This document shows, in pieces, positions 11,201-48,163 of a stretch of 64,000 nt of DNA. This stretch comes from Escherichia phage vB_Eco_Jura. Every line of letters starts with the position of its first letter. Positions within the stretch are counted from its first letter, which is position 1. Position numbers and translations under genes: made by a program. A model generated the notes under the pieces. That model did no database searches. It was not told the DNA's origin and was given only the letters and a program-made list of their open reading frames with translations. Location: the sequence record LR999871, one strand, 5' to 3'.

Positions 11201-12785
11201 TTGCTTCAACAGCATCACGAATAGTAACTTCTGCTTCTGGTGCTTGAGCCATAGCTTCTTGTGCTGCCTGTGCAACATAGTCATCAGCAACAGGAGATGC
11301 TTCTTCATTCTGCTTCATAACCCGTTCACCACGAGCTACCAAAGTGTTCTTAATAGGAGAAACAACCTTACCTGCTACACTACCAGCAGCTTTAACACCA
11401 GCCATTGTGGTACGCAATACAGGAGCAGTTGCAGCACCTGCTAAACGAGCAGCACCAGCCGGAGCCTGTACAACACCAGCAGAACCAAAGCCATAAAGAG
11501 CACCTAAACCAGCTTGTGTACCGACACCTTTAAGCAGGTCTTGGTTCTTATCAATGTTTTGTTGCTGTGCAATATTCTGAGCCAGTTGGCCTGTAGCACC
11601 CTGAACACCTTCTTCCACTGTTTCACGGGCAAGGTTCATACCTACAGCACCTAAAGAACCAGCACGGAAAGGAGCCATCTCAAAACGAGATACTAGAGGA
11701 CCAGTTGCAGCAGCAATAGGTAATTGAATAGCAGCAGCAGTAAGACCAGTTTCAGATGCAGTCTGACGACGAGCCTGTTCTGGAGACATACCATCTTTAA
11801 TATGTTGTTGATAAACAGGAGACTTCTCTAAGTCTTTAAGACTCATCTTCATAATTTCATCAGCAGTTTGTTGGTATGCACCACCAGCTTCCATTGCACC
11901 AACACCAACCATACCTGGTGCAGCTCTGCCTACAGTAGAAGCAATACGAGCCAGTGACTGAGTACCAGTACCTGCATCAATAGCACCAGCCAATGCAGCA
12001 CTACGAAGAGTATTTGCTGGAACAACTGCTTTACCCAGTAAAGATGCACCCCTTAATACAGGACCAGCACCTAATAGAGAACCTACCCCTTCTGCTAACC
12101 CATCAGAAATAATAGAGTCAGTTTGAGCAGCGTTCTCAATTGAACCTACAAAATCACGTCCAAATTTAGATAAGGAAGCTACTATGTCATTAGTGCCTTC
12201 TTTCTTATCTGTTTGATACTGACGTTCACTCTCTACTTCACTCATTAAGTTACGAGCAGCAAAGAGCTTACGTTTATCTTGTAATGCTTGGCTTTGGGTA
12301 GCATGGACAGCATCATTAAACTTACTCAATTGTTGAGCAATGACAGCACCTGCATCATCGTTGAGTAAGCCTGCTCCAAGAGCACCAATGCCCCCAAGGG
12401 TATTAACAAAACCAAGACCAACACCAGTAGCAATATCCCCCAGTTCTTCCCCAGGAGTTCTTGTAGTAATCGAATCATTGAATACTTGGTTCCCTGCATC
12501 AGCACGAGCGTTGATAAGTTGTAAGCCTTGCTCAACACCATACTTATTCATGATTTGCATTGGAGTCAGATTCATAAAATCTGATTGCACTGTCCCTGGT
12601 TCAAATGCATTAGCCCCAACATTACCAGTACGGGCAGCTTGCATTTGATAAGCAGCATCAGGAGAAACAAGAGGAGTAGTGACACCTTGTTCAGCTTTCT
12701 TCTGGGCGGTTGCAGTAGAGACGTCAACTTGCTTTGCATTGGTTACGCTGTCTGCGAACCCAGCCAGTCTATCAAATACTGACAT
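2283..12785 (-). CDS. Virion RNA polymerase (giant vRNAP, N4 gp50-like), 3500 aa
   Basis: ATG at 12785 with AGGAAA RBS (track ORF begins at TTG 12803); T7-like motif A (YVEADGVTNGPINAMM) and motif B (TITIYGSGARGIAGK) in the central region; size and position match N4-type vRNAP. Confidence 0.9.
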   Translation of the reverse strand: MSVFDRLAGFADSVTNAKQVDVSTATAQKKAEQGVTTPLVSPDAAYQMQAARTGNVGANAFEPGTVQSDFMNLTPMQIMNKYGVEQGLQLINARADAGNQVFNDSITTRTPGEELGDIATGVGLGFVNTLGGIGALGAGLLNDDAGAVIAQQLSKFNDAVHATQSQALQDKRKLFAARNLMSEVESERQYQTDKKEGTNDIVASLSKFGRDFVGSIENAAQTDSIISDGLAEGVGSLLGAGPVLRGASLLGKAVVPANTLRSAALAGAIDAGTGTQSLARIASTVGRAAPGMVGVGAMEAGGAYQQTADEIMKMSLKDLEKSPVYQQHIKDGMSPEQARRQTASETGLTAAAIQLPIAAATGPLVSRFEMAPFRAGSLGAVGMNLARETVEEGVQGATGQLAQNIAQQQNIDKNQDLLKGVGTQAGLGALYGFGSAGVVQAPAGAARLAGAATAPVLRTTMAGVKAAGSVAGKVVSPIKNTLVARGERVMKQNEEASPVADDYVAQAAQEAMAQAPEAEVTIRDAVEATDATPEQKVAAHQYVSDLMNATRFNPENYQEAPEHIRNAVAGSTDQVQVIQKLADLVNTLDESNPQALMEAASYMYDAVSEFEQFINRDPAALDSIPKDSPAIELLNRYTNLTANIQNTPKVIGALNVINRMINESAQNGSLDVTEESSPQEMQNVALAAEVAPEKLNPESVNVVLKHAADGRIKLNNRQIAALQNAAAILKGAREYDAEAARLGLRPQDIVSKQIKTDESRTQEGQYSALQHANRIRSAYNSGNFELASAYLNDFMQFAQHMQNKVGALNEHLVTGNADKNKSVHYQALTADREWVRSRTGLGVNPYDTKSVKFAQQVALEAKTVADIANALASAYPELKVSHIKVTPLDSRLNAPAAEVVKAFRQGNRDVASSQQKADSVNQVKETPVTKQEPVTSTVQTKTPVSEPVKTEPTTKESRPQAIKEPVSQSEKRDVNLTNEDNIKQPTESVKETETSAKESTVTEELKEGIDAVYPSLVGTADSKAEGIKNYFKLSFTLPEEQKSRTVGSEAPLKDVAQALSSRARYELFTEKDVANPAFNGEVIKRYKELMEHGEGIADILRSRLAKFLNTKDVGKRFAQGTEANRWVGGKLLNIVEQDGDTFKYNEQLLQTAVLAGLQWRLTATSNTAIKDAKDVAAITGIDQALLPEGLVEQFDTGMTLTEAVSSLAQKIESYWGLSRNPNAPLGYTKGIPTAMAAEILAAFVESTDVVENIVDMSEIDPDNKKTIGLYTITELDSFDPINSFPTAIEEAVLVNPTEKMFFGDDIPPVANTQLRNPAVRNTPEQKAALKAEQATEFYVHTPMVQFYETLGKDRILELMGAGTLNKELLNDNHAKSLEGKNRSVEDSYNQLFSVIEQVRAQSEDISTVPIHYAYNMTRVGRMQMLGKYNPQSAKLVREAILPTKATLDLSNQNNEDFSAFQLGLAQALDIKVHTMTREVMSDELTKLLEGNLKPAIDMMVEFNTTGSLPENAVDVLNTALGDRKSFVALMALMEYSRYLVAEDKSAFVTPLYVEADGVTNGPINAMMLMTGGLFTPDWIRNIAKGGLFIGSPNKTMNEHRSTADNNDLYQASTNALMESLGKLRSNYASNMPIQSQIDSLLSLMDLFLPDINLGENGALELKRGIAKNPLTITIYGSGARGIAGKLVSSVTDAIYERMSDVLKARAKDPNISAAMAMFGKQAASEAHAEELLARFLKDMETLTSTVPVKRKGVLELQSTGAGAKGKINPKTYTIKGEQLKALQENMLHFFVEPLRNGITQTVGESLVYSTEQLQKATQIQSVVLEDMFKQRVQEKLAEKAKDPTWKKGDFLTQKELNDIQASLNNLAPMIETGSQTFYIAGSENAEVANQVLATNLDDRMRVPMSIYAPAQAGVAGIPFMTIGTGDGMMMQTLSTMKGAPKNTLKIFDGMNIGLNDITDASRKANEAVYTSWQGNPIKNVYESYAKFMKNVDFSKLSPEALEAIGKSALEYDQRENATVDDIANAASLIERNLRNIALGVDIRHKVLNKVNLSIDQMAAVGAPYQNNGKIDLSNMTPEQQADELNKLFREELEARKQKVAKAKAEVKEEIVSEKEPVNPDFGMVGREHKASGVRILSATAIRNLAKISNLPSTQAATLAEIQKSLAAKDYKIIYGTPTQVAEYARQKNVTELTSQEMEEAQAGNIYGWTNFDDKTIYLVSPSMETLIHELVHASTFEEVYSFYQGNEVSPTSKQAIENLEGLMEQFRSLDISKDSPEMREAYVDAIATIEGHLSNGFVDPAISKAAALNEFMAWGLANRALAAKQKRTSSLVQMVKDVYQAIKKLIWGRKQAPALGEDMFSNLLFNSAILMRSQPTTQAVAKDGTLFHSKAYGNNERLSQLNQTFDKLVTDYLRTDPVTEVERRGNVANALMSATRLVRDVQSRGFNMTAQEQSVFQMVTAALATEAAIDPHAMARAQELYTHVMKHLTVEHFMADPDSTNPADRYYAQQKYDTISGANLVEVDAKGRTSLLPTFLGLAMVNEELRSIIKEMPVPKADKKLGNDVDTLLTNAGTQVMESLNRRMAGDQKATNVQDSIDALSETIMAAALKRESFYDAVATPTGNFIDRANQYVMDSIERLSETVIEKADKVIANPSNVAAKGVAHLAKLTAAIASEKQGEIVAQGVMTAMNQGKVWQPFHDLVNDIVGRTKTNANVYDLIKLVKSQISQDRQQFREHLPTVIAGKFSRKLTDTEWSAMHTGLGKTDLAVLRETMSMAEIRDLLSSSKKVKDEISTLEKEIQNQAGRNWNLVQKKSKQLAQYMITGEVGNNLLRNAHAISRLLGERITNSPVADVAAIDKLTTLYSLELMNKSDRDLLSELAQSEVEGMEFSIAYMVGQRTEEMRKAKGDNRTLLNHFKGYIPVENQQGVNLIIADDKEFAKLNSQSFTRIGTYQGSTGFRTGSKGYYFSPVAARAPYSQGILQNVRNTAGGVDIGTGFTLGTMVAGRITDKPTVERITKALAKGERGREPLMPIYNSKGQVVAYEQSVDPNMLKHLNQDNHFAKMVGVWRGRQVEEAKAQRFNDILIEQLHAMYEKDIKDSSANKSQYVNLLGKIDDPVLADAINLMNIETRRKAEELFGKDELWVRRDMLNDALGYRAASIGDVWTGNSRWSPSTLDTVKKMFLGAFGNKAYHVVMNAENTIQNLVKDAKTVIVVKSVVVPAVNFLANIYQMIGRGVPVKDIAVNIPRKTSEINQYIKSRLRQIDAEAELRAAEGNPNLVRKLKTEIQSITDSHRRMSIWPLIEAGEFSSIADAGISRDDLLVAEGKIHEYMEKLANKLPEKVRNAGRYALIAKDTALFQGIQKTVEYSDFIAKAIIYDDLVKRKKKSSSEALGQVTEEFVNYDRLPGRFRGYMESMGLMWFYNFKIRSIKVAMSMIRNNPVHSLIATVVPAPAMFGNVGLPIQDNMLTMLAEGRLDYSLGFGQGLRAPTLNPWFNLTH

Positions 12786-12844
12786 AGTAGGTTTCCTATA
12801 CAAACTTATATCTATTAGAAATCACACTATACCTAGTGTAAGGA

Positions 12845-19625: not shown

Positions 19626-20831
19626 TTACAGCGGAGCTACAGTTTTAATAAGAGCCAGACGTTCTGGACGTTTAACCAGAATACCGTAGTACCATTTGAT
19701 GCTGGAGAAGCCAGTTTCACCATATGGGTCATTACGGTCAGCAGTTTCTTTACCAGGCATCTTAGTCATAACGGTAAATTTAAGTGACTTACCGTCAGTC
19801 TGGAAGCCAATGGAGGTAAAGGAATCATCACCTACTACCAGCATTGGGTAAACGTCATAGTGCTCTTGGCCAGATACCATAGAGGTACGGTAACCAGGGT
19901 TAGCTCCAGTAGCCTGTGCACCAGCACCCGCCCAGTGCAGCATCTCTGGAACCTGAATGATACGGAACTTATCAATAGAACCGACTTCACCATTCATGAT
20001 AGTACCTGCATCAGCATAGTGCTGAGTTTCGATAAAGGCTTTATTACCGAACAGGTCTTTCATTGCTTTCAGTTCTGGAACCAGTTCAGAACCTACATAC
20101 ATGACACGAGTAGCACCGATGACTTTAGTATCAATCATACGGGAACCAGTGATGATGGTAGTCTGAGTAGGAGTACGGTTCTCCGTCAGAATCTGGTCAA
20201 GACGCATCAGGTTCTTATAAGAAACTACAGACGGGGTAGAACCTTCACCAGTGATGGTGGAATCAGAAGTAGCAGCACCAGCATACAGAACAGTACCAGC
20301 AGCAGCCAGCAGGTCTTTTTGCAGTACAGCTTCAGTAATCTGAGTAGCACCATTCATCAGTTCACGGGACAGGTGTTCCATCAGGCCATCATCAGAATCG
20401 AAGTCAATAGATTCCTGAGTGAACTCATAGAAGAAGCCAAACTTGTGAATAGAACCTTCACGAGCAATACGAGTAAAGCCAACACGGTTAACTCGACCAC
20501 CGTTTTCAGTCAGTAGAGGCAGTTTGGAGGTAATGTTACCGATGTCTTTGCTGGAACCATACAGGTTACCGTTAACGATGGTAGCACCACTTGCATCAAT
20601 ACCCTGGTCATTGATGTTACGGTCATCCAGCAGAGGAACATATTCATATACCTTGATGGTCTTACCGTAATGCTTCGGCATGTTAGTTACAGAGGCCAGT
20701 GGCATGAAGTACTGCTCTTTACGGGCAGTGATGATTGCTTTCTTCAGCCAGAAGAAGGTTTGCATCTGGTCAGAGTTAGCACCATCAATACTAGATTTCT
20801 GACCGTCAATAGGAGCGTTATAGTTCAACAT
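19626..20831 (-). CDS. Major capsid protein (N4 gp56-like), 401 aa
   Basis: Follows portal and acidic scaffold-like gene; size typical for N4-type capsid protein; synteny-based. Confidence 0.7.
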
Positions 20832-37699: not shown

Positions 37700-37707
37700 G
37701 GAAAGCT

Positions 37708-37836
37708 ATGTGGTATATAACAGTTAAAGGTTTACCCGAACCAGTGATGATAGATAGCCTGGCATTCGTAGAAGTAGGTCATCCTATTCTTATAGAAGGT
37801 AAGTTGTATGAAGTTGTTAGTATTTATAAGAGATAA
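37708..37836 (+). CDS. Small hypothetical ORF (42 aa)
   Basis: ATG with AAGGAAAG RBS; below track size cutoff. Confidence 0.3.
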   Translation: MWYITVKGLPEPVMIDSLAFVEVGHPILIEGKLYEVVSIYKR

Positions 37837-37943
37837 ATAGGAAGTCTATTAGATAGATACCCTATAATTTTTTCTTAGTGAAAATAGTCATAGTTACTTA
37901 TGAGTTCAGTATTTGGTGGGGCTACACCCCTTACACCATAAGC

Positions 37944-37953
37944 ACCCCCCCCC
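37944..37953. repeat. Homopolymeric C tract (about 10 C)
   Basis: gcaccccccccccctg within C-rich repeats just upstream of first hairpin promoter. Confidence 0.7.
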
Positions 37954-38003
37954 CTGTCTTTACTAGTGTAGCCTTAGCCTACCCCACCTTGTACACGTTA
38001 CAC

Positions 38004-38022
38004 GTTGCTTCGCAACTTATGG
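38004..38022 (+). promoter_or_regulatory. Hairpin promoter P-a, N4 vRNAP type (GTTGC-TTC-GCAAC, then ttatGG)
   Basis: 5-bp stem, 3-nt loop; GG at +11/+12 from loop centre, same spacing as the other two; template-strand loop GAA. Confidence 0.55.
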
Positions 38023-38067
38023 ACATGTTGTCCGTATCTTATCAATCAACTATTGGAGACTAATACT

Positions 38068-38394
38068 ATGACTACTCAGGCTAACGTTCGTATGACTGTA
38101 GGAACTCTGTTGGGTACTGTTAACGAAGCAGCAACTACTGTAGCTGATACATTCGGTACTGCTACTAAAGCAGTAGGTATGCTTAATCGTTATGTAACTA
38201 AACAAGCAGATAAACAAATCATTCGTGACAAATTAGAAATGCATGAGTTTACCAATAAACTTATTGAAGAAACTGCAATGCAAGAAGCTATTCGTCAGAA
38301 ACAAATCTTAGACTTCTGCAAAGATGAACAAAACAAAGAATTGTTCTCTAATGCCTATGACCGTCTTAGCAAAATCTTAGCAGACTCTAAATAA
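38068..38394 (+). CDS. Early hypothetical protein, 108 aa
   Basis: ATG with GGAGAC RBS downstream of P-a; followed by terminator. Confidence 0.6.
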   Translation: MTTQANVRMTVGTLLGTVNEAATTVADTFGTATKAVGMLNRYVTKQADKQIIRDKLEMHEFTNKLIEETAMQEAIRQKQILDFCKDEQNKELFSNAYDRLSKILADSK

Positions 38395-38406
38395 TAACAA
38401 ACAAAT

Positions 38407-38430
38407 GGAGGCTCCTCGGAGTCTCCTTTT
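38407..38430 (+). terminator. Rho-independent terminator
   Basis: GGAGGCTCC/GGAGTCTCC hairpin followed by TTTT. Confidence 0.55.
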
Positions 38431-38470
38431 ACATAGAACCGATAGTTCAATAACTATCTACTTTAAAGAT

Positions 38471-38491
38471 AAGAAGCTCCGCTTCTTTTGG
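38471..38491 (+). promoter_or_regulatory. Hairpin promoter P-b, N4 vRNAP type (AAGAAGC-TCC-GCTTCTT, then ttGG)
   Basis: 7-bp stem, 3-nt loop; minus-strand reading CATCCAAAAGAAGCGGAGCTTCTT matches my recollection of N4 early promoter P2. Confidence 0.65.
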
Positions 38492-38595
38492 ATGAAGTAA
38501 TGCATCCAATCCTGTATGAAATCTTAACCTTTTGTCTGGGATTACTTACCGACAAAGTAGTCTCAACTAATCAAAATCAACTATCTGGAGAGTAC

Positions 38596-38985
38596 AAAAT
38601 GGCTATCACTACTTTTGCTAAAACCTTTGGTCAGGCTTCTACTAAAACCGAATCCAACAATGGTTCTCGTCCAAAAGCTCAGTTCTGGATTAACGTTGGC
38701 TATGTAGCTAATGAAGGCACTGAAGATGAACGTTTCATCTCTCTGCCTACTGGTATTCCACTGGATACTCAGGAGCATCTGCCAACCAATTCCTCTAACG
38801 AAGACTTCCGTGCAATGCGTTGTGCACAGAACGATTTGTTAGACCAACTGATGGAATTTGCTAAGACTCTGGAACCGGGTCAAGAAGGAGTTATCTCACT
38901 GCAAGTTCAACTTCGTCGAGTTAAAGAAGAAGCTCCTGCTATCTCAGCAAGTGAGAATAAATATGCTCGTAAACTGACTTTCTAA
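38596..38985 (+). CDS. Early hypothetical protein, 129 aa (alternative start at 38500)
   Basis: Start MAITTF with GGAGAG RBS; in-frame upstream ATG at 38500 lies 10 nt past predicted +1. Confidence 0.55.
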
Positions 38986-38993
38986 TCTCTATA

Positions 38994-39018
38994 GGACTAC
39001 CTTCGGGTAGTCCTTTTT
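38994..39018 (+). terminator. Rho-independent terminator
   Basis: GGACTACC-ttcg-GGTAGTCC followed by TTTTT. Confidence 0.65.
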
Positions 39019-39127
39019 AATTTTAACTATCTAAATACTAAAGTAGAGATTTTGACCCTTTTCGACGAAGGGATACTAAAAAGTAATGGATAGTTTGAGC
39101 AGATGTTTTAGAAGAAGGAGTATACAG

Positions 39128-39442
39128 ATGCATCCTCTTATAAAACGATTCCTGATGGACTATCAGGAGTGGTTAGATAATGGAGCCAGTGAACCTCATT
39201 ACCTGTTTGATAGGGGTAGTGGACTGTGTGTTCAACTAGGCAAATATCTTAGAAGACAGCCAATCAGTGAAGAAACAGTAGATACTCTGTGTAAGAGCTT
39301 TACTCATTTACTTCCTGATAATGATACCAATCTACCATTCAATGTAGATGTTCTCGACTACATGATGGAATGTTCTGATGGAAGATGTCATCTGAACCAA
39401 AGTCGAATTAATTGGATTAAGAGTCAGTTGGAGAGTAAGTAA
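39128..39442 (+). CDS. Hypothetical protein, 104 aa
   Basis: Start MHPLIKRF with GAAGGAG RBS. Confidence 0.55.
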   Translation: MHPLIKRFLMDYQEWLDNGASEPHYLFDRGSGLCVQLGKYLRRQPISEETVDTLCKSFTHLLPDNDTNLPFNVDVLDYMMECSDGRCHLNQSRINWIKSQLESK

Positions 39443-39445
39443 ATT

Positions 39446-39883
39446 ATGTCATATGAAATTGTAAAACATTGGACTTCTAAGGCTGGGCTGAAGGCTTGGG
39501 TATTGCTGGTAAATGGTGGTAGCCATCATTGTGGTTATGTGGAAATACCAGAAGCATTACTGGATAAAAACTTCTATGACTATATATGTGATGATGAAGA
39601 AACACTTCATATTACAGTACATGGTGGAGTTACCTATCAAGGTGTTCCTCAGTGGGCTGATGGGATTAAAGTCATAGGTTATGACTGTGCTCATGCAGGG
39701 GATAAACTGAAATGTCCTAAACAATTCATTGGCTCTCTTAGGGAGAGACTCTATGAGGATTCTTATGGAGTATGGCGAGATGAAGAATACTGCATCAATG
39801 AATGTGAAAGCATGGCAGACCAGTTAATTAACCTGATACCAAAATTAGGGTTTAACGATGAAATTCAGAACAGTAATGGTTAA
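39446..39883 (+). CDS. Hypothetical protein, 145 aa
   Basis: ORF 3 nt after previous stop. Confidence 0.6.
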   Translation: MSYEIVKHWTSKAGLKAWVLLVNGGSHHCGYVEIPEALLDKNFYDYICDDEETLHITVHGGVTYQGVPQWADGIKVIGYDCAHAGDKLKCPKQFIGSLRERLYEDSYGVWRDEEYCINECESMADQLINLIPKLGFNDEIQNSNG

Positions 39884-40055
39884 TGCTCTTGATACCAGGG
39901 GTAATGAAATCATTAGCTATAAAGTGCAAGGCTTTAAATGGTTCAAATGGAAAACATTAACTAGCTTTAAAGAATTTGAGAAAGATAAAGCTATTAAGTT
40001 AACCAAGAAATTGAACCAACGTAAGAAGATTAAATTAGTTACTGTAATTAAATAA
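39876..40055 (+). CDS. Small basic hypothetical protein, 59 aa
   Basis: ATG overlapping previous stop; Lys-rich. Confidence 0.4.
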   Translation: MVNALDTRGNEIISYKVQGFKWFKWKTLTSFKEFEKDKAIKLTKKLNQRKKIKLVTVIK

Positions 40056-40065
40056 GGATAAGGCA

Positions 40066-40224
40066 ATGCGTAAATCACTAATCATGGGAACCAAAGAAGA
40101 CGTTGCTAAGATGAAAGCTAAACGTCAGATGAATAAAGCAGTAACGTTTGCAGAACGTTATAGTACGTCTGAACCAGTACGTCGTATTGTTACTTTCAAC
40201 CATCCAGCTATTAAGGGTATGTAA
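40066..40224 (+). CDS. Small hypothetical ORF (52 aa)
   Basis: ATG with AAGGATAAGG RBS; stop overlaps next start; below track cutoff. Confidence 0.35.
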   Translation: MRKSLIMGTKEDVAKMKAKRQMNKAVTFAERYSTSEPVRRIVTFNHPAIKGM

Positions 40225-40433
40225 TGCAAACTAAAGATAAGAAAGACTTAGAACGTCTTCTCCGTGTATATGGTGATTATGCATTGTTAGCAGAGATAAC
40301 TAATATTATCGAAGAAGACTGTCGTAACGGTTATGCCAATAACCCACAAGCAATAATTCATCGTGATGCAGTAGTGCTTAGAGAAGCAGTCAGTAAGATG
40401 CAAGCATTACATCCATTAAGACAGCGAGCATAA
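40224..40433 (+). CDS. Hypothetical protein, 69 aa
   Basis: ORF followed by terminator. Confidence 0.5.
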   Translation: MQTKDKKDLERLLRVYGDYALLAEITNIIEEDCRNGYANNPQAIIHRDAVVLREAVSKMQALHPLRQRA

Positions 40434-40436
40434 ATA

Positions 40437-40470
40437 GGAGGGGGCTACTAAGCCCTCTTCTTATTTTTAT
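40437..40470 (+). terminator. Rho-independent terminator
   Basis: GGGGGCT-acta-AGCCCTC hairpin followed by T-rich run. Confidence 0.55.
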
Positions 40471-40506
40471 CGTGGTTATTAAGCAACTATCTTAGAGGAA
40501 GGAATA

Positions 40507-40722
40507 ATGGAACAGTTAAACTACGGTTATAAGATTAAACGCAATCAAGTAAGAGGTTCTTGGTTATTTCTCGTTTATGGTAAACCAATCTATGAATTAC
40601 ATCGTGGAGAGAAATCCAAGACCTATTACGTAACTCATATTGCTACAGGAAAAACTCCTGCATGTGCAGGATTGCTTCGTGATGCAATTATGAAAGCATG
40701 TATGTTAGAAGGACTTCTATGA
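40507..40722 (+). CDS. Hypothetical protein, 71 aa
   Basis: ORF with GGAAGGAA RBS. Confidence 0.5.
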   Translation: MEQLNYGYKIKRNQVRGSWLFLVYGKPIYELHRGEKSKTYYVTHIATGKTPACAGLLRDAIMKACMLEGLL

Positions 40723-41033
40723 ACCAAATCATTGCTATCCCGCAGCATAAAGCTCGTATTGCTGACAGGAATATTCGTATTCATTATCCAATGCCTTTGA
40801 GTAATCCATTTCAGAAAAATGAGAGAACCACGGATGAAGATATAGCAGCAGCTTATGAGGCATATCTTCGTAACCGTTTGGTAAGTGGTGACAAGCTCAT
40901 TACGGCTGAAATGGAACGAATTGCTAAATTCGTTATAGATGATACTGACAAACCCGTTGGCCTCATTGGTAATGAACTGGAAGTGAATGTAATCCGTAAG
41001 ATTATTATGGAGGCTCTTAATGGGAATCAGTGA
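40719..41033 (+). CDS. Hypothetical protein, 104 aa
   Basis: Start MNQIIAIP overlapping previous stop (ATGA). Confidence 0.5.
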   Translation: MNQIIAIPQHKARIADRNIRIHYPMPLSNPFQKNERTTDEDIAAAYEAYLRNRLVSGDKLITAEMERIAKFVIDDTDKPVGLIGNELEVNVIRKIIMEALNGNQ

Positions 41034-41196
41034 ATCCCAGGCTATGGCTATTAAACAGTTAGCCTTCAACTGCCTTAGTGCTATGAAGGCATTTAATGAA
41101 GCAAAAACTTTCCCTGACCAGAATAAAGCTCGTATTCGACTTTATCAGTCTAAGAAAGATTTTGAAGAATATCTGGAAAGTATTACGGTGAAATAA
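41023..41196 (+). CDS. Small hypothetical ORF (57 aa)
   Basis: Bridges two genes with overlapping start and stop; below track cutoff. Confidence 0.35.
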   Translation, partial: GISESQAMAIKQLAFNCLSAMKAFNEAKTFPDQNKARIRLYQSKKDFEEYLESITVK

Positions 41197-41516
41197 TGAA
41201 AACAATATTAATTGTTCATGATGCTGATTTTAATGATGTTGATAAAATGATGCGTAATATTGATTATGTAGCTCAGACAACTCCAGCATTTAAAGAAGAA
41301 TTTACTCTATATTGTGATGCTAATTCACCATTAGTTCCCATTCTGAAAGAAGCTGGTTTACCCTTCTCTACAGATAATTTCCCTGAAGAACCTGATTATG
41401 TAATTTCATTTATTTATGACTTACATGATGGCTCAGAACCAAGTGAATTGACTATGAGTCAATGGAAATCCAGAAGACCTGTATATGCATTTCAGGTAGT
41501 TAAATCAAGGAGTTAA
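41196..41516 (+). CDS. Hypothetical protein, 106 aa
   Basis: ORF in tightly packed array. Confidence 0.55.
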   Translation: MKTILIVHDADFNDVDKMMRNIDYVAQTTPAFKEEFTLYCDANSPLVPILKEAGLPFSTDNFPEEPDYVISFIYDLHDGSEPSELTMSQWKSRRPVYAFQVVKSRS

Positions 41517-41518
41517 CT

Positions 41519-41887
41519 ATGTTAGGTGATAACACTAATGCTCTGTTTGGAGTGTCAGCCAGACCTATTATCATTGTTAATAAACATCATGGTAAAAAGG
41601 GTGAATATATTGGGCGTGGTTCTCCTCTGGGTAATCCATTCGTTATTGGTAAAGATGGAACCAGAGAAGAAGTAATTGCCAAATATAAAGTATGGCTACA
41701 AGAACAGATTGATAAAGGTAATCCAGTTGTACTGGATGAATTAAATCGTCTTGGTAATAAAGCCATTGATGAAAAAGGATTAGCTTTACAGTGCTTCTGT
41801 TATCCAAAACCTTGTCATGGCGAGGTTATTAAAGAGAAGTTAGTAAAAGCTATGTATAACTACTTTGTGGAAAATCCTAATGGATAA
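41519..41887 (+). CDS. DUF4326-like protein (GNPF ... CxCxPxPCHG motifs), 122 aa
   Basis: RGSPLGNPF and QCFCYPKPCHGEV match my recollection of the DUF4326 signature. Confidence 0.6.
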   Translation: MLGDNTNALFGVSARPIIIVNKHHGKKGEYIGRGSPLGNPFVIGKDGTREEVIAKYKVWLQEQIDKGNPVVLDELNRLGNKAIDEKGLALQCFCYPKPCHGEVIKEKLVKAMYNYFVENPNG

Positions 41888-42065
41888 ACAATGCAAATGT
41901 GGTAAAGGCTATGTATCCCAATGGGATGGTAAATGTGGTCATTGTAGAACCAAGAAAGAACAACGTGACCATGAATATGCACTTCAGGAAATGATTGTAC
42001 CTGTTGAGAATTTAGGTATGGCTCCACTTGAGGCTTACAAATACATAAGGAGATTATGCAAATGA
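41880..42065 (+). CDS. Small Cys4 zinc-ribbon protein, 61 aa
   Basis: CKCG...CGHC pattern; start overlaps previous stop. Confidence 0.45.
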   Translation: MDKQCKCGKGYVSQWDGKCGHCRTKKEQRDHEYALQEMIVPVENLGMAPLEAYKYIRRLCK

Positions 42066-42442
42066 AAGAAGTATTCGTATTTGGTTCTAACCTTGCTGGT
42101 GTACATGGTGCAGGTGCTGCAAAGACAGCATATAAGAAACATGGAGCCAGATGGGGTAAAGGGCATGGTCATTATGGTGACAGCTACGCTATTCCCACTA
42201 AAGATACCAATATCAAAACGATGACTATTGAAGACATTCGTACATTTGTAAACGCCTTCATTGTCTATGCTGCTAATCATCCAGAACTTAACTTTAAAGT
42301 TACTCGTGTAGGTTGTGGATTAGCTGGTATTGATGATTCTGTTATGGCCTCTATGTTTGAAAATGCCACTGATAACTGTTCCTTTGACTTAGCATGGAAA
42401 AGTTACTTAGGGGATGATTTCAACTACTGGGGAACGTTCTAA
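42062..42442 (+). CDS. Hypothetical Gly-rich nucleotide-binding-like protein, 126 aa
   Basis: VFVFGSNLAGVHGAGAAKTA and VTRVGCGLAGIDDSV; start MKEV with AAGGAG RBS; fold not assigned. Confidence 0.55.
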   Translation: MKEVFVFGSNLAGVHGAGAAKTAYKKHGARWGKGHGHYGDSYAIPTKDTNIKTMTIEDIRTFVNAFIVYAANHPELNFKVTRVGCGLAGIDDSVMASMFENATDNCSFDLAWKSYLGDDFNYWGTF

Positions 42443-42460
42443 CTCATACGTTAGGCAATA

Positions 42461-42480
42461 AGCTGCTCCGCAGCTTTTGG
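42461..42480 (+). promoter_or_regulatory. Hairpin promoter P-c, N4 vRNAP type (AGCTGC-TCC-GCAGCT, then tttGG)
   Basis: 6-bp stem, 3-nt loop TCC identical to P-b; same spacing to GG; 37 nt upstream of RNAP II gene. Confidence 0.6.
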
Positions 42481-42516
42481 TAATTAATATGTTTAACCAA
42501 TTTTGGAGAATATGCG

Positions 42517-43329
42517 ATGTCTACTATCGAACATCAGATGCACCTCGAAAAGCTGTACAACAAGAACCAACTGTTACCAAGAATGCGTCAGGAGTTTGAA
42601 GAAAACTCTGGTATTGATTTCAAAGCCTTCTTTGCACATATAGGCATTGATTACAAATTTGGCATTGATGCAATGGTTCAAATGGCTCTGCATAAGCGAG
42701 CTGACCTACCAACATTAGTTGGTACATTGCGTCATCATTGCAAATCTGCACAGGAAGTAGCAGACAACCTTTTTAAGATGGCAAGTGAGGATTGCTTTAA
42801 CTTTGACCCGACCATCGACAAGTTCATTGTCATTTATACAATCAGCGATGACGTACAGCATGAACTGGATTCATTTCAATATCCACTACCTATGGTAGTA
42901 CGTCCTAAGCTGTTAACTAAGAATTATGGTACTGGGTACTTCACATGTAATAAGAGTGTGATTCTTAAGAAGAACCATACTGACGATGACATCTGCTTAG
43001 ACCATCTGAACCGTATGAACAAGATTCCATTGTCTATCAATTGGGATGTAGCTCATATGGTTAAAAATGAATGGGCTAATCTGGATAAACCGAAAGAAGG
43101 TGAAACTCGTCAGGAGTTTGAAAAACGTGTACGTGCATTCCAGAAATATGACCGTACTGCACATGAAGTAATGGGTTTATTGACCCAGGAAGGCAATAAG
43201 TTCTATCTGACTCATCGTCCGGATAAACGTGGTCGTACCTATTGCCAAGGTTATCATGTAACATACCAGGGAACTTCTTGGTGTAAAGCCGTGATTGAAC
43301 TTGCTGATAAGGAACTTATCAATGATTAA
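42517..43329 (+). CDS. Phage RNA polymerase II, small subunit (T7-like RNAP N-terminal homolog), 270 aa
   Basis: HRPDKRGRTY resembles T7 RNAP DxRGRxY; paired with downstream catalytic subunit as in N4. Confidence 0.75.
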   Translation: MSTIEHQMHLEKLYNKNQLLPRMRQEFEENSGIDFKAFFAHIGIDYKFGIDAMVQMALHKRADLPTLVGTLRHHCKSAQEVADNLFKMASEDCFNFDPTIDKFIVIYTISDDVQHELDSFQYPLPMVVRPKLLTKNYGTGYFTCNKSVILKKNHTDDDICLDHLNRMNKIPLSINWDVAHMVKNEWANLDKPKEGETRQEFEKRVRAFQKYDRTAHEVMGLLTQEGNKFYLTHRPDKRGRTYCQGYHVTYQGTSWCKAVIELADKELIND

Positions 43330-43831
43330 AGACAGAATGCCTATGGGTTACTGGAACAAACCAATAGAAGAATTAGCAATAGCTCACCCAAAAGAAGCTG
43401 CTAATAGTGCTAGTGGTTACATACGTATATCCAGAAACAATAGGATTCATTATTTACATCGTTGGTTGTGGGAACAAAAACATGGTGCTATCCCTGCTGG
43501 ACACACCATTGACCATCTTAATGGAATCCGGACTGATTGCCGTTGGGAAAACATGCGTTGTATCCCTTGGGCAATTAACTTACGTAATAGTACAAAGCGT
43601 GCTGATAACACGTCAGGAGTAACAGGTGTCTCACTATGGAAATCTCCAAAAGGAGTGTTCTGGAGAGCAACTTGTACTGACAACTTAACAGGAAAACAAC
43701 GATGTAAGGTGTTTTCCATAAATAAATACGGTTACAACTTTGCATTTGAATTAGCATGTGATGCTCGTGCCGATATGATTGAACGCCTGAACCAACAAGG
43801 TGCAGGTTATACCGACCGTCACGGTCAATAA
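43322..43831 (+). CDS. HNH homing endonuclease with AP2-type DNA-binding domain
   Basis: HTIDHLNGIRTDCRWENMR HNH motif plus GVTGVSLWKSPKGVFWRA...YGYNFAFELACDARA; start overlaps upstream stop. Confidence 0.8.
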   Translation: MIKDRMPMGYWNKPIEELAIAHPKEAANSASGYIRISRNNRIHYLHRWLWEQKHGAIPAGHTIDHLNGIRTDCRWENMRCIPWAINLRNSTKRADNTSGVTGVSLWKSPKGVFWRATCTDNLTGKQRCKVFSINKYGYNFAFELACDARADMIERLNQQGAGYTDRHGQ

Positions 43832-43885
43832 TCCCTATAAGCAGGCTCTCCATAGTGGGGAGCCAAGAAGCAAGAGGAATATACA

Positions 43886-45100
43886 ATGCAAACTTTTACT
43901 GCCCGTGAATATCTGAAAATTGACATTGCTAATAACTATGGTCTGGATAAAGAAGACTGGGATGACCGTATTGCATGGTTCGATAAGAATGAGAACAACC
44001 TGCTGAACCTTGTAAGAGAAGCTGAAGAACCAGCCCTGTTCTATGCTGGTGTTAAAGCATGGATGGACGTTAAGGAAGGTAAGCCAATTGGTTATCCTGT
44101 TGCACTGGATGCTACATCATCTGGTCTACAGATTCTGGCTTGCCTGACTGGTGACCGTAGAGCTGCTGAACTATGTAACGTTGTTAACTATCGTGATGAA
44201 AGTGGCAAAGTTAAACGTCGTGATGCTTATACAGTTATCTACAACAAGATGCTGAACACTCTTGGTAAAGGTGCTCGTATCAAACGTAATGACTGTAAAC
44301 AAGCAATCATGACTGCTCTGTATGGTTCAGAGGCTAAACCAAAGGAAGTATTTGGTGAAGGCATTATGCTCAACGTATTTGAAAGCACAATGAATGTGGA
44401 AGCACCTGCTGTATGGGAATTGAATAAATTCTGGTTACAGTGTGGTAATCCAGAGGCTTTCGTATATCACTGGGTAATGCCAGATGGCTTTAACGTATAT
44501 ATCAAAGTAATGGTAAATGAAGTGGAGACTGTCCACTTCTTAGATAAGCCGTATGACTGTGTTCGTAAAGTACAAGGTACTGAAGAGAAGACTCGTATGC
44601 TATCTGCCAATACCACCCACTCTATTGATGGCCTAGTAGTACGTGAGCTGGTTCGTCGTTGTGACTATGACAAGAACCAGATTGAATACATCAAGGCTCT
44701 TTGCAATGGTGAAGCTGAATATAAGACTTCTGAAAAGAACTATGGCAAAGCAATGGAACTGTGGGGCTACTATGAGAAGACAGGATTCCTGACTGCTCGT
44801 ATCTTTGATTATCTGGATTCTGAAACTATTAAATTAGTAAATACTCAGGACATTCTAGACCTGATTGAATCCATGCCTAAGAAACCATTCCATGTACTCA
44901 CTGTACATGACTGCTTCCGTTGCCTGCCTAACTATGGCAATGACATTCGTCGTCAGTACAACAACCTGTTAGCTACTATTGCTAAAGGTGACTTACTATC
45001 TTTCATTATGAGCCAGGTTCTAGGCCAAGAAGTTACTATTGGCAAACTAGACCCGACTCTATGGGAAGATGTATTAGAAACCGAATACGCTCTATCTTAA
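43886..45100 (+). CDS. Phage RNA polymerase II, large catalytic subunit, 404 aa
   Basis: T7-like motif A LDATSSGLQILACLTGD, motif B KQAIMTALYGS, motif C LTVHDCF. Confidence 0.85.
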   Translation: MQTFTAREYLKIDIANNYGLDKEDWDDRIAWFDKNENNLLNLVREAEEPALFYAGVKAWMDVKEGKPIGYPVALDATSSGLQILACLTGDRRAAELCNVVNYRDESGKVKRRDAYTVIYNKMLNTLGKGARIKRNDCKQAIMTALYGSEAKPKEVFGEGIMLNVFESTMNVEAPAVWELNKFWLQCGNPEAFVYHWVMPDGFNVYIKVMVNEVETVHFLDKPYDCVRKVQGTEEKTRMLSANTTHSIDGLVVRELVRRCDYDKNQIEYIKALCNGEAEYKTSEKNYGKAMELWGYYEKTGFLTARIFDYLDSETIKLVNTQDILDLIESMPKKPFHVLTVHDCFRCLPNYGNDIRRQYNNLLATIAKGDLLSFIMSQVLGQEVTIGKLDPTLWEDVLETEYALS

Positions 45101-45105
45101 TAACT

Positions 45106-45140
45106 AAGGCTATCCCTACGGGGGTAGCCTTTATTTTTTT
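45106..45140 (+). terminator. Rho-independent terminator
   Basis: AAGGCTATCCC/GGGGTAGCCTT hairpin followed by T-run. Confidence 0.65.
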
Positions 45141-45184
45141 AGTAAATCATAATGGATAGGCATTTAACCTATGAGGAAATTAAA

Positions 45185-46024
45185 ATGCCTGTTCTTAAAG
45201 TGATGTTCCATAAAGACACCAACGTAGCTACTGTACTGGATGCCAGTGGTAGCCTTAGTGATGGTTCCGTTGAGGTGGGTACTTTCCATCATCCTGATGA
45301 AACCTATCCCGATAGTGTAACTATCTATCATGGTGTACGTGACCTGCTGTATAAACGCAGTGCTAAAGACCCATCTCAAACTGCTTCTTACCCAAATAAC
45401 ATTATCAATATGCAAGTTATCAGTATTGATATGAAGGCAACTCCTCGCCTGATTTTGGGTACTGCATTGCCTCGTGTAATCTCTACTATTGAAGGTAAAG
45501 ATGTAACCTGGCATGTAGATGTTGCTGGTGGTAAAGCACCATTGACTTACAAGTGGCAGTTTAAAGCTAATACTGTAGGTGCTGCTTTCGCTGATATTGA
45601 TTCCGGAGAGAATCCTACAGCTAAAACTGCAACTCTTATTAATCATGCAGTAACTGCTGAATCTGCTGGTACTTATAAAGTCATCGTTACTGATGCTAAC
45701 GGTACTACTATCGAGAGTTCTTCTCTGCTGGTTGTAGGAGTTCAGGAACCACCTGAAGTAGCTTCTATTGTTGCTTATCCAAGTCCACTGGCTCTATCAG
45801 TAGCTGATGATATTACCAATGGTAAAACAGTTAAGTTTTCTTCCCTGCCTGCTGGCTCTTTGATTGGTACTCTGTCCATTAAGACCCAGCCTGACAGTGG
45901 TAAAGCTACTGCTGAGATTAGTGGTAATGTACTGACAGTTAAACCTGTAGCCGCAGGTGACACTACTGTAGTGGTCACCAACGGAACCAAGGAAGTAACT
46001 GTTACGGTTAATGTTACAGAGTAA
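45185..46024 (+). CDS. Ig-like (BIG2-type) domain protein, candidate capsid decoration protein (N4 gp17-like position)
   Basis: Two Ig-like segments; lies immediately after the RNAP II genes; start MPVLK with AGGAAA RBS. Confidence 0.6.
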   Translation: MPVLKVMFHKDTNVATVLDASGSLSDGSVEVGTFHHPDETYPDSVTIYHGVRDLLYKRSAKDPSQTASYPNNIINMQVISIDMKATPRLILGTALPRVISTIEGKDVTWHVDVAGGKAPLTYKWQFKANTVGAAFADIDSGENPTAKTATLINHAVTAESAGTYKVIVTDANGTTIESSSLLVVGVQEPPEVASIVAYPSPLALSVADDITNGKTVKFSSLPAGSLIGTLSIKTQPDSGKATAEISGNVLTVKPVAAGDTTVVVTNGTKEVTVTVNVTE

Positions 46025-46045
46025 TGTGATTGTTTTTATGAATGT

Positions 46046-46068
46046 AGCCCTCCTTGTGAGGGCTTTTT
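46046..46068 (+). terminator. Rho-independent terminator
   Basis: AGCCCTC-cttgt-GAGGGCT followed by TTTTT. Confidence 0.65.
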
Positions 46069-46093
46069 AGTATCTATAGGAGAGTAAATAATT

Positions 46094-46408
46094 ATGGCTA
46101 ATAAGAACCGTCTTCGTGTATGGCATATCCCTCAAGTACCCGGCAAAGCCTTCTATGTTGAAGTAGATTCAGTAGAAGAAGGTGTACGTATCATTGATAT
46201 ACTAGCCAACTATGACCTATTCCAGTATGAGAACAATATCAAAGGTGATTACTGCAATGTCTCTGGTTTACAGATGTATGATGAACATATCACTGATGAT
46301 GAAATGGAAGAGATGGGTCTGACTGACCGTTGGGTAGACTGGTACTATGAAGATGACCAGAGCTTTTTTGATAACCCGAAAGAGTATTTGAATAATCTCA
46401 AGAAGTAA
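46094..46408 (+). CDS. Hypothetical acidic protein, 104 aa
   Basis: ORF with GGAGAG RBS. Confidence 0.55.
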   Translation: MANKNRLRVWHIPQVPGKAFYVEVDSVEEGVRIIDILANYDLFQYENNIKGDYCNVSGLQMYDEHITDDEMEEMGLTDRWVDWYYEDDQSFFDNPKEYLNNLKK

Positions 46409-46448
46409 TTTCTTGGGGTTAATGACCCTTATTAATTCCTTATCCTTT

Positions 46449-46471
46449 GCCCTCCTATGGAGGGCTTTTTT
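46449..46471 (+). terminator. Rho-independent terminator
   Basis: GCCCTCC-tat-GGAGGGC followed by T6. Confidence 0.65.
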
Positions 46472-46482
46472 ACGGAGTACAA

Positions 46483-46689
46483 ATGTTTAAGTTCTTAGAC
46501 CTTATCTGGGCAGTCATTTTGCTGGTTGCTACAGGCTTTGTATATGGCTTCTTGCTCCCATCAATGATGTCTGCTTTAGACAGCATCATTGTTGTTATGG
46601 GCTTGATAGTCTGTATTGTGTGGCCTCTTATCGTAGGCCGTATCGTTTATCTTACAGTTAAGAAAAGGATGAGAAGAAAACATGTATAA
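46483..46689 (+). CDS. Small two-TM membrane protein, 68 aa
   Basis: Two hydrophobic helices, basic C-terminus KKRMRRKH. Confidence 0.5.
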   Translation: MFKFLDLIWAVILLVATGFVYGFLLPSMMSALDSIIVVMGLIVCIVWPLIVGRIVYLTVKKRMRRKHV

Positions 46690-47518
46690 GTACATTGCAG
46701 TAGCAATTGCAGGGCTAATCATTGCTCTAAGTTTAACGAGCTGCTATGACCGAGTTGAACCAGGTAATGTAGGTATTATCGTTAATCGTCTCGGTGAAGA
46801 TAAAGGTGTGGAAAATGAGGTTAAAGGTGTAGGCCGTTACTGGCTCACTTGGAATGAAGAACTTTATACATTCCCGACCTTTAAGCAGATGAAGACCTAT
46901 GATGGTCTGTTTTACTTCCAACTGTCTGATGGTACTCAGATAGGCCACCAGATGGCTATCAGCTATAAAGTGAACCCTACTAAGGTAACTAATATCTTCC
47001 AGACGTATCGTAAGGGAGTTAATGAAATTACCGAGCAGGATTTACGACAACGTATTGCTGATGTACTTAACAGACAGGGTAACCTGATTAACACTGATAC
47101 ATTTATTGATGGTGGTAAATCTAAGCTACTGGATAGTGTCACTGACACAATCCGTAAAGAGATGGAACCAGTAGGGATTGATATTATTGCTATCTCCTGG
47201 ATTGGTGCTCCTGAATACCCTGATAATGTTAAACGTGCCATTAATGCCAAAGTAGAAGCTACTCAGAAAACTCTGCAACGTGAGCAAGAGATTCAGCAAC
47301 GTGTAGCTGAAGCTAATATGGAACGTGAACAAGCTAAGGGTGTAGCAGATGCTATCCTGATTAAAGCTAAAGCAGAGGCTGATGCTATTCGTTTACGTGG
47401 TGAAGCACTCACCGAGAACCCAAATGTAATGCAACTGGAAGCCATTAATAAGTGGAATGGTACATTACCTACCACAATGATTCCTGGGGCTACTACACCT
47501 TTCGTTAATGTGAAATAA
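46682..47518 (+). CDS. SPFH (band 7) domain lipoprotein, 278 aa
   Basis: Lipobox LSLTSC; SPFH-like core and C-terminal coiled coil. Confidence 0.7.
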   Translation: MYKYIAVAIAGLIIALSLTSCYDRVEPGNVGIIVNRLGEDKGVENEVKGVGRYWLTWNEELYTFPTFKQMKTYDGLFYFQLSDGTQIGHQMAISYKVNPTKVTNIFQTYRKGVNEITEQDLRQRIADVLNRQGNLINTDTFIDGGKSKLLDSVTDTIRKEMEPVGIDIIAISWIGAPEYPDNVKRAINAKVEATQKTLQREQEIQQRVAEANMEREQAKGVADAILIKAKAEADAIRLRGEALTENPNVMQLEAINKWNGTLPTTMIPGATTPFVNVK

Positions 47519-47524
47519 CTAAGC

Positions 47525-47554
47525 AAACCCACCATTACGGTGGGTTTATTTTTT
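47525..47554 (+). terminator. Rho-independent terminator
   Basis: AAACCCACC/GGTGGGTTT hairpin followed by T-run. Confidence 0.65.
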
Positions 47555-47580
47555 GAAGTTATCTAACACTGGGTATTCCT

Positions 47581-47805
47581 ATGAAAGTAAATATTTTACG
47601 CCGTAAGAAAGTTCCTTTCTTTCAAATCAATTGTGGTTCATGCTTTCAACACGATGATGACTACTATATGAAGTGTAGTTATCAATCCAAAGAACACTTC
47701 TATGGTGTGAATTTACAAACAGGTCATCTGTTCACATTTGATAATAATGACTTTGTTTATCCTGTGACCTTAGAAGCATGTATTCCTGACCCATTTAATA
47801 AATAG
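47581..47805 (+). CDS. Hypothetical protein, 74 aa
   Basis: ORF. Confidence 0.45.
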   Translation: MKVNILRRKKVPFFQINCGSCFQHDDDYYMKCSYQSKEHFYGVNLQTGHLFTFDNNDFVYPVTLEACIPDPFNK

Positions 47806-47806
47806 T

Positions 47807-48163
47807 ATGGCTCAAGAAAAGAATCGTCGTCAGACACTTATCGAACGTATTCAGGCCAGAATCAAATTACAGGACTTAGGCTATACCGTTAATGGTCAGC
47901 CTAGTCTCTGTCACATCTGGACTGGTTCACATTCAGGTAATGGACGTGGTGGGCAATATGGCAGGATTTCCGTGAATGGAGTTACCTCTGCAACTCACAT
48001 TATTGCCTATACCCATTATCATGGTTATATCCCCAATAAGATGCAAGTAGACCATCTCTGTAATAATCGTCTGTGCTGTAACCCTGAACATCTTGAATTG
48101 GTTACTCACCAAGAGAACCAGAGAAGAAGGGCTAAGCGTTCTAAATCTAAAGGAAATAAATAA
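47807..48163 (+). CDS. Free-standing HNH endonuclease, 118 aa
   Basis: HIWTGSHSGNGRGGQYGRISVNG...QVDHLCNNRLCCNPEHLELVTHQEN. Confidence 0.8.
   Translation: MAQEKNRRQTLIERIQARIKLQDLGYTVNGQPSLCHIWTGSHSGNGRGGQYGRISVNGVTSATHIIAYTHYHGYIPNKMQVDHLCNNRLCCNPEHLELVTHQENQRRRAKRSKSKGNK

Follow-up and report, generated by a model that had tools for sequence, protein, structure and literature searches.

Three early-region hairpins of Escherichia phage vB_Eco_Jura as probable equivalents of the coliphage N4 promoters P1, P2 and P3

Few phage promoters have been characterised as thoroughly since 1985 as the early promoters P1–P3 of coliphage N4, for which the complex of polymerase and hairpin has been solved by crystallography and cryo-EM. 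Their recognition by the virion RNA polymerase (vRNAP, gp50) was reportedly described by Haynes & Rothman-Denes in 1985, Glucksmann in 1992, and Gleghorn in 2008. Three short hairpins in a 64,000-nt stretch of Escherichia phage vB_Eco_Jura (LR999871; hereafter the window) raised the question of whether they are the same promoters and which transcription units they would serve. Based on the comparisons given below, the three hairpins almost certainly correspond to N4 P1, P2, and P3, read by vRNAP.

In N4 promoters, the centre of a GC-rich heptamer falls at −11; the template bases are A or G at −11, G at −10 and −8, and C at +1, and the template spacer consists of four A. The P2-vRNAP structure displays contacts at −11G, −10G, and −8G (PMC4496689).

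Coordinates and geometry of the three hairpins

The hairpins were located by direct reading and by an exhaustive hairpin scan. Early promoter P1 occupies 38004–38022 on the plus (non-template) strand, covering positions −17 to +2 and equal to N4 90–108. Its hairpin, GTTGC-TTC-GCAAC (38004–38016), has a 5-bp stem and a 3-nt loop centred at 38010 (−11), and it is followed by the spacer TTAT (38017–38020) and GG at 38021–38022, with G38021 as the predicted +1. The template (minus) strand reads 5'-GTTGC-GAA-GCAAC-3'.

Early promoter P2 (38471–38491, plus strand) was found by the hairpin and motif scans, by identity with N4, and by a published oligonucleotide. The hairpin AAGAAGC-TCC-GCTTCTT (38471–38487) has a 7-bp stem, its loop is centred at 38479, and the spacer TTTT leads to GG at 38490–38491 (predicted +1, G38490). 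On the template strand it reads AAGAAGC-GGA-GCTTCTT, with a core 5-bp stem in which 38473–38477 pairs with 38481–38485.

Early promoter P3 (42460–42480, plus strand) was found by the same scans and by identity with the N4 genome. The first-pass annotation had placed the first two hairpins correctly and had given the third as a 6-bp stem at 42461–42475; it is in fact AAGCTGC-TCC-GCAGCTT, with a 7-bp stem at 42460–42476. Its loop is centred at 42468, and the spacer TTTT precedes GG at 42479–42480, with G42479 as the predicted +1. The proposed position of GG, 11 and 12 nt from the loop centre, was thus read directly at all three sites.

The three sites share the features of the N4 type. Their stems of 5, 7, and 7 bp fall in the 5–7 bp range with a 3-nt loop centred at −11, and the non-template heptamer GC-TYC-GC with a G:C loop-closing pair is centred there in each. 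The template loops, written 5'-G(−10) R(−11) A(−12)-3', are GAA in P1 and GGA in both P2 and P3. Non-template −8 is C at 38013, 38482, and 42471 (template −8G); eight nucleotides further downstream, past a 4-nt spacer rich in template A, comes template +1C. Template −12A, −11R, −10G, −8G, and +1C are therefore all present in P1, P2, and P3. When folded as DNA, the template strands of all three sites formed exactly the expected hairpins; the nearest-neighbour energies were modest, with only −3.7 kcal/mol (z = −1.4) for P1 in a model that omits the special stability of G-N-A mini-loops.

Occurrence of the motif in the window

Short hairpins are common in this DNA, and the three sites could in principle be chance inverted repeats without function. 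Of perfect hairpins with a 3-nt loop and 5 bp or more of stem, each strand of the window has 126, but only 4 on each strand are followed by GG at +11/+12. A search of both strands by sequence only for GCTYCGC-N7-GG returned three matches, exactly P1–P3, against an expectation of 0.16 ± 0.37, and none of 100 shuffles reached three. All three matches are intergenic, have extended stems, and cluster on the plus (coding) strand inside 4.5 kb of the early region. The sole other heptamer in the window, at 19634 on the minus strand, lacks GG, and its stem is 3 bp long. The sites are also kept in six related genomes with compensatory stem changes. The probability that chance alone produced them is negligible.

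Identity with N4 P1–P3

At all three sites, hairpin, spacer, and start agree in every base with the N4 reference, in which the hairpin centres have coordinates 96, 565, and 4554 of 70,153. For P1, window positions 37973–38053 are the exact reverse complement of a published 81-mer template (PMC13434306), described there as 'P1 promoter with 30 bp of native DNA on either end'. For P2, the published 19-nt core CCAAAAGAAGCGGAGCTTC (PMC13492108) is the reverse complement of window 38473–38491, and it bears out the earlier suggestion that the minus-strand reading of the second site is N4 P2. The proposed alignment to published N4 promoters was therefore exact at the level of published templates for P1 and P2, and P3 was matched via the N4 genome record only. 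P3 is identified by this match, at the one motif site left over, and by reports that gp15/gp16 are transcribed by vRNAP; a full-text literature search with the P3 sequence on either strand returned only the KP8 paper and unrelated matches.

Compared with N4, the window has the same hairpins, loops, spacers, start dinucleotide, genome-end distances, downstream genes, and polymerase gene. It differs in the base 5' of the P2 stem, which is T38470 here and G in N4 and lies outside the known determinants, and in the P3 operon, where gp15 and gp16 are separated by an additional HNH gene. Since the window represents an N4-type genome, the result is a correct rediscovery of promoters that were already known, and it adds nothing new for biology. 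As far as the sequence can tell, nothing argues against their explanation as N4 P1–P3.

Genome orientation, left end, and terminal repeat

The window shares 99.0% identity with the N4 record EF056009, which places it as an N4-species genome, and 99.6% with phage vB_Eco_AL25. By alignment, it is a circularly permuted assembly of an N4-type phage, and for this reason the promoters appear in mid-window. Base 1 of the N4 record, the left physical end, aligns with position 37914 (no strand), 90 nt upstream of the P1 hairpin, and the final base of that record (70153) aligns with 37913. The records of four N4-species phages (N4, 3HA13, OLB145, and VEc25) all start at 37914. The first-pass annotation had set the genome's left end just upstream of about 38000; its location agrees with these four records, but in the window itself 37914 is, by the same alignment, an internal junction of the permuted assembly and not a DNA end. 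For annotation, these positions mark the window as a permuted N4-species genome with its left end at 37914.

The direct terminal repeat of N4 is 390–440 bp long (PMC3715699), and P1 lies within it. The repeat is collapsed to one copy in the window, and a second copy is absent both from the window and from every N4-species record in the phage collection. The packaged linear genome might carry a right-end repeat with a second copy of P1, perhaps with its own role in end handling or replication, although we regard this as unlikely. A second P1 copy at the right end would mean that the virion holds four vRNAP promoters. The N4 virion contains roughly four vRNAP molecules, so that, if true, there would be four promoters for about four polymerases.

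One publication mentions 'four early promoters (P1-P4)' in one place and lists three elsewhere (PMC13492108), and a fourth promoter was therefore looked for. A relaxed scan of the whole window gave no further promoter candidates; it tolerated up to 2 mismatches where all pairs of the 5-bp stem were kept, or 1 mismatch where 4 of the 5 were. Every hairpin with a 3-nt loop and 4 bp or more of stem was listed for 37914–48000, and no fourth promoter was among them. The N4 segment that the window lacks contained no motif match.

Downstream genes and the cognate polymerase

The first-pass annotation had described the sites as lying upstream of the first early genes and of the RNAPII genes, and the gene order agrees. 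P1 precedes gp1 (38068–38394, plus strand), the first early gene, whose product is a proposed middle-transcription cofactor (PMC4496689). P2 precedes the early gene gp2 (38500–38985, plus strand), which encodes an ssDNA-binding cofactor recruiting RNAPII (PMC4496689). P3 is followed after 37 nt by the start codon of gp15 (42517–43329, plus strand), the RNAPII small subunit and first gene of the unit, and then by gp16 (43886–45100, plus strand), the RNAPII large subunit (Pfam RNA_pol, E 3.6e-14).

The cognate polymerase is encoded in the same window. The vRNAP gene (gp50; 3,500 aa) lies at 2283–12785 on the minus strand, within an ORF of 3506 aa (2283–12803) whose residues 7–3506 match residues 1–3500 of the PDB chains named 'Virion DNA-directed RNA polymerase'. 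The ORF also matches the mini-vRNAP structures 2PO4, 3C2P, and 3Q0A.

The second and third sites lie just past stop codons and consist of GC-containing stem-loops followed by TTTT, an arrangement that would also suit intrinsic (rho-independent) terminators that end rightward transcripts of the genes before them. However, a terminator scan requiring a GC-rich stem-loop directly followed by at least 5 T in 8 bases called none of the three sites, whereas it does call neighbouring hairpins. Separate and much stronger terminator-like hairpins with T-runs are present just upstream of P2, after gp2, and after gp16. The first, after gp1, is called at 38407–38430 (plus strand; hairpin 38407–38426 with 8 pairs, then TTTT) and may form the 3' boundary of the P1 unit. 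The second is at 38993–39018 (plus strand), and the third, at 45106–45135 (plus strand), is a candidate for the end of the P3-gp15-gp16 unit; all three are calls of the consensus scan only. The first site lies 90 nt from the genome end, has no upstream gene, and has TTAT after its stem. In the relatives, the asymmetric TCC loop, its GC/GC closing pairs, and a GG at constant spacing are invariant, but the T-run is not (TTAAGG in ST4_c, TTGAGG in F22_c). Published biochemistry and structures have P1 and P2 acting as promoters (PMC4496689, PMC13434306, PMC13492108). It is highly improbable that the three sites are terminators.

Predicted initiation at P1–P3

The mechanism established for N4 was assigned to this isolate because its three sites are identical to those of N4; initiation, extrusion, and SSB dependence would then proceed here as follows. 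The left end of the linear genome would enter the cell first, along with vRNAP. The DNA, being topologically constrained, would be supercoiled by host DNA gyrase, and a small cruciform would extrude at the inverted repeats. Of its two hairpins, E. coli SSB would melt the non-template one and spare the unusually stable one on the template (minus) strand, in which the loop 5'-G-R-A-3' would form a sheared G:A pair closed by G:C.

The polymerase would recognise the hairpin shape together with template −11 (A or G), −10G, and −8G, and its beta-intercalating hairpin would set the junction between duplex and single strand at −5/−4. The four template A would serve as a ruler, with the start made by GTP opposite template +1C. 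Transcription would run rightward, with predicted 5' ends at G38021 (P1 to gp1), G38490 (P2 to gp2 and onward), and G42479 (P3 to gp15 and gp16, that is, RNAPII). For annotation, these positions define three predicted early transcription starts.

Conservation in related phages

The absence of the hairpins from related phages had been named as evidence against promoters of this type; they were found in six related genomes, with flanking identity of 77–99% and with covarying stems. Compensatory changes occurred in 3 of the 5 stem pairs, and the covariation score was 0.59, compared to 0.10 for shuffles and at most 0.09 for slid controls. The alignment was built from motif matches, so its 100% pairing is partly a result of selection. 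A non-circular stem check of all sequence-only matches in the six related left-end regions was therefore added, and a stem of at least 5 bp was present in 24 of 24, where the pattern itself fixes only 2 pairs.

The sites also resemble palindromic operators that a dimeric phage or host regulator would bind as duplex DNA, being short perfect inverted repeats in intergenic positions upstream of genes. Their conservation, however, is not dyad-symmetric: the centre is an invariant, non-palindromic T-Y-C, and the invariant GG stands on one side only. The outer stem positions covary and are not conserved, a pattern that suits a structure but not an operator read by sequence in duplex DNA. Extrusion of the hairpins and structures of vRNAP bound to a hairpin are documented (PMC4496689). 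We consider the operator reading extremely improbable. The terminator, duplex operator, and chance readings were all rejected, with chance effectively refuted by the motif count and by the conservation and covariation of the stems.

Predicted early promoters of other Enquatrovirinae (Klebsiella phage KP8, VLCpiP4a, Gamaleyavirus G7C, F22, and ST4) share with the window's vRNAP promoters the GC-TCC-GC heptamer, a 5–7 bp stem, a 3-nt loop, and GG at 11–12 nt from the loop centre, and they too stand before the homologues of gp1, gp2, and gp15. The pattern GCTYCGC-N7-GG recovered the four annotated early promoters of KP8 (PMC6950046) and 3–4 sites each, at equivalent positions, in F22, ST4, VLCpiP4a, and G7C. 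P3-equivalent hairpins lie upstream of the gp15 region in all five phages. The relatives differ from N4 in their outer stem sequences, with compensatory changes, and their loops are all TCC, whereas the N4-type P1 has TTC (template −11A). KP8 and VLCpiP4a have a fourth site, unlike N4 and the window. Across the Enquatrovirinae, the pattern combined with a stem of at least 5 bp thus finds annotated or predicted early promoters, and no match in the sequences examined was without such a stem.

Pseudomonas phage LUZ7, in which nine early TSSs were mapped by ONT-cappable-seq, also has hairpin promoters with a 3-nt loop, a G start, and an N4-like vRNAP, but its stems are at least 4 bp and its TSSs lie 13–14 nt from the hairpin centre, compared to 11 in the N4 type (PMC9163698). 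T7-type single-subunit RNAPs are homologous polymerases with equivalents of the specificity loop, the intercalating hairpin, and the upstream recognition element, and their promoters likewise span about −17 to +1 (PMC4496689). T7 promoters are read as duplex DNA by sequence, whereas N4 vRNAP promoters are read as an extruded template-strand hairpin.

Identity of the hairpin sites with the N4 early promoters

Direct reading of the window and an exhaustive scan for perfect 3-nt-loop hairpins confirmed three plus-strand sites, designated P1 (38004-38022), P2 (38471-38491), and P3 (42460-42480). The P1 hairpin (GTTGC-TTC-GCAAC, 38004-38016, loop centre 38010) was followed by the spacer TTAT and GG at 38021-38022. 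P2 (AAGAAGC-TCC-GCTTCTT, 38471-38487, loop centre 38479) and P3 (AAGCTGC-TCC-GCAGCTT, 42460-42476, loop centre 42468) both carried the spacer TTTT, with GG at 38490-38491 and 42479-42480, respectively. The GG therefore occupied centre +11/+12 at all three sites. The first-pass annotation had reported three hairpins with this spacing, which held, except that the third stem, placed at 42461-42475, is one pair longer (7 bp). DNA folding of the template (minus) strands returned precisely these hairpins, with the loop 5'-GAA-3' in P1 and GGA in P2 and P3. Template -8 was G and +1/+2 were CC in every promoter.

The hairpin, spacer, and start of each site showed no differences from the N4 reference, in which the hairpin centres lie at 96, 565, and 4554. 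The sole nearby change was at window 38470 (T, G in N4), which abuts the 5' side of the P2 stem and lies outside the known determinants. The P2 oligonucleotide used in the cryo-EM structure of the virion RNA polymerase (vRNAP) initiation complex contains CCAAAAGAAGCGGAGCTTC (PMC13492108), the reverse complement of window 38473-38491; the earlier suggestion that the second site is N4 P2 read on the minus strand thus proved correct. On sequence grounds, the assignment of 42460-42480 to P3 is secure, one of three reasons being that it is the only motif site left even when the N4 segment that the window lacks is included.

The published N4-type promoter consists of a GC-rich heptamer centred at -11 between inverted repeats, with the loop closed by a G:C pair and the loop 5'G and 3'A required for extrusion and stability (PMC4496689). 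Template -11A/G, -10G, -8G, and +1C are recognised by vRNAP, four template A residues serve as the ruler, and two GTPs initiate transcription (PMC4496689). The two outer pairs of the 7-bp P2 and P3 stems correspond to those melted by the intercalating hairpin in the P2_7a structure (PMC4496689). Identity to N4 and agreement with these determinants bear out the proposed vRNAP-type promoters, and the data support the three sites being the N4 early promoters, an already known feature.

From this identity, the mechanism established for N4 would be expected to hold in the isolate. The genome left end and vRNAP would enter the cell first, and supercoiling of the constrained DNA by gyrase would extrude the inverted repeats. 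SSB would melt the non-template hairpin while the template hairpin remains, and binding of vRNAP to the latter would unlock the active site for a start at the +1 G.

Chance expectation and conservation among related phages

Perfect hairpins with a 3-nt loop and at least 5 bp of stem numbered 126 per strand of the window, and only four per strand also had GG at +11/+12. The pattern GCTYCGC-N7-GG, which leaves the outer stem free, matched three times in total across both strands of the window compared to 0.16 expected; the matches were P1, P2, and P3, and none of 100 shuffles contained as many as three. The heptamer GCTYCGC by itself was not enriched in the window (4 compared to 3.9 expected), and its fourth copy had a 3-bp stem without GG. 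Relaxed scans found no additional promoter candidate in the window, and scans of the window and of the N4 segment absent from it found no canonical sites beyond three per single-copy genome.

In Klebsiella phage KP8, the same pattern recovered the four annotated early promoters (PMC6950046). VLCpiP4a, F22, ST4, and G7C each had three or four pattern sites at equivalent positions. Stems of at least 5 bp were found in 24 of 24 pattern matches, although the pattern fixes just two pairs. Among 20 aligned sites, both partners changed at three of five core pairs, with AU/CG/UA/GC at one and UA/CG/AU at another. Covariation scored 0.59, compared to 0.10 for shuffles and no more than 0.09 with slid partners, with the 100% pairing arising partly from selection of these sites by motif. 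For this reason, the stem result provides the less biased test.

The alternative explanations considered were terminators, duplex operators, and chance hairpins. However, conservation was asymmetric (the T-Y-C loop did not vary, and the GG lay on one side only), the stems covaried, and the terminator scan did not call the three sites whereas it called stronger neighbours. All three alternatives were therefore rejected in favour of early promoters.

In the more distant phage LUZ7, the early promoters that have been mapped likewise form hairpins with a 3-nt loop and start with G, but the start lies 13-14 nt from the hairpin centre, unlike in N4 (PMC9163698). In F22 (OP870143), the P1 hairpin region occurs twice, inverted, at 197 (-) and 317 (+) near the record start with N nearby, which probably reflects misassembly at the end of the genome. 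G7C (HQ259105) contains an extra hairpin, AACGC-TCC-GCGTT, centred at 509 (+), with the canonical heptamer and CG rather than GG at +11/+12; it is possibly an early promoter of degenerate or non-canonical type.

Predicted early transcription units

The vRNAP gene was located at 2283-12785 (-) and encodes 3,500 residues, matched full length by N4 vRNAP PDB chains. As anticipated in the first-pass annotation, the promoters lie upstream of the first early genes and of the RNAPII genes (gp15 and gp16). The predicted P1 start at 38021 precedes gp1 (38068-38394), that of P2 at 38490 precedes gp2 (38500-38985) and beyond, and that of P3 at 42479 precedes gp15 (42517-43329) and gp16 (43886-45100).

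Plus-strand terminator-like hairpins with T-runs occurred at 18 per 10 kb in the early/middle region compared to 5.3 expected. They include 38407-38426, 38993-39014, 40436-40461, 45106-45131, 46046-46064, and 46449-46465 (+); the terminator scan placed hairpins of this kind after gp1, gp2, and gp16, and one sits directly between gp1 and P2. Those after gp1, gp2, and gp16 may be used by vRNAP.

Between gp15 and gp16, a 169-aa ORF at 43322-43831 (+) carries HNH_3 (E 8e-17) and AP2 domains. In the N4 reference, this interval is no more than a 47-bp gap, and G7C has gp15.1, annotated as a 'putative HNH homing endonuclease', at the same place. The ORF looks like a homing endonuclease carried within the P3 early operon.

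Genome left end

Over the region 37700-38700, identity was 99.0% with Escherichia phage N4 (EF056009/NC_008720) and 99.6% with vB_Eco_AL25. Window 37914 is the first base of the N4 record and of three other N4-species records, and the last N4 base (70153) aligns with 37913. Therefore, the window is a circularly permuted assembly, and the left end, previously estimated just upstream of 38000, is placed at 37914. The minus-strand late region lies left of this junction and the plus-strand early region right of it, and a GC-skew switch at approximately 38000 agrees with this layout.

The direct terminal repeats reported for N4 measure 390-440 bp (PMC3715699), so P1 and most of gp1 fall inside the repeat. 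No second repeat copy was found in the window or in any deposited N4-species record, the repeat being collapsed to one copy. The poly-C tract at 37945-37954, which lies approximately 30 nt from the left end of N4, is C10 in the window compared to C9 in the reference; this is due either to variation in homopolymer length or to ambiguous sequencing.
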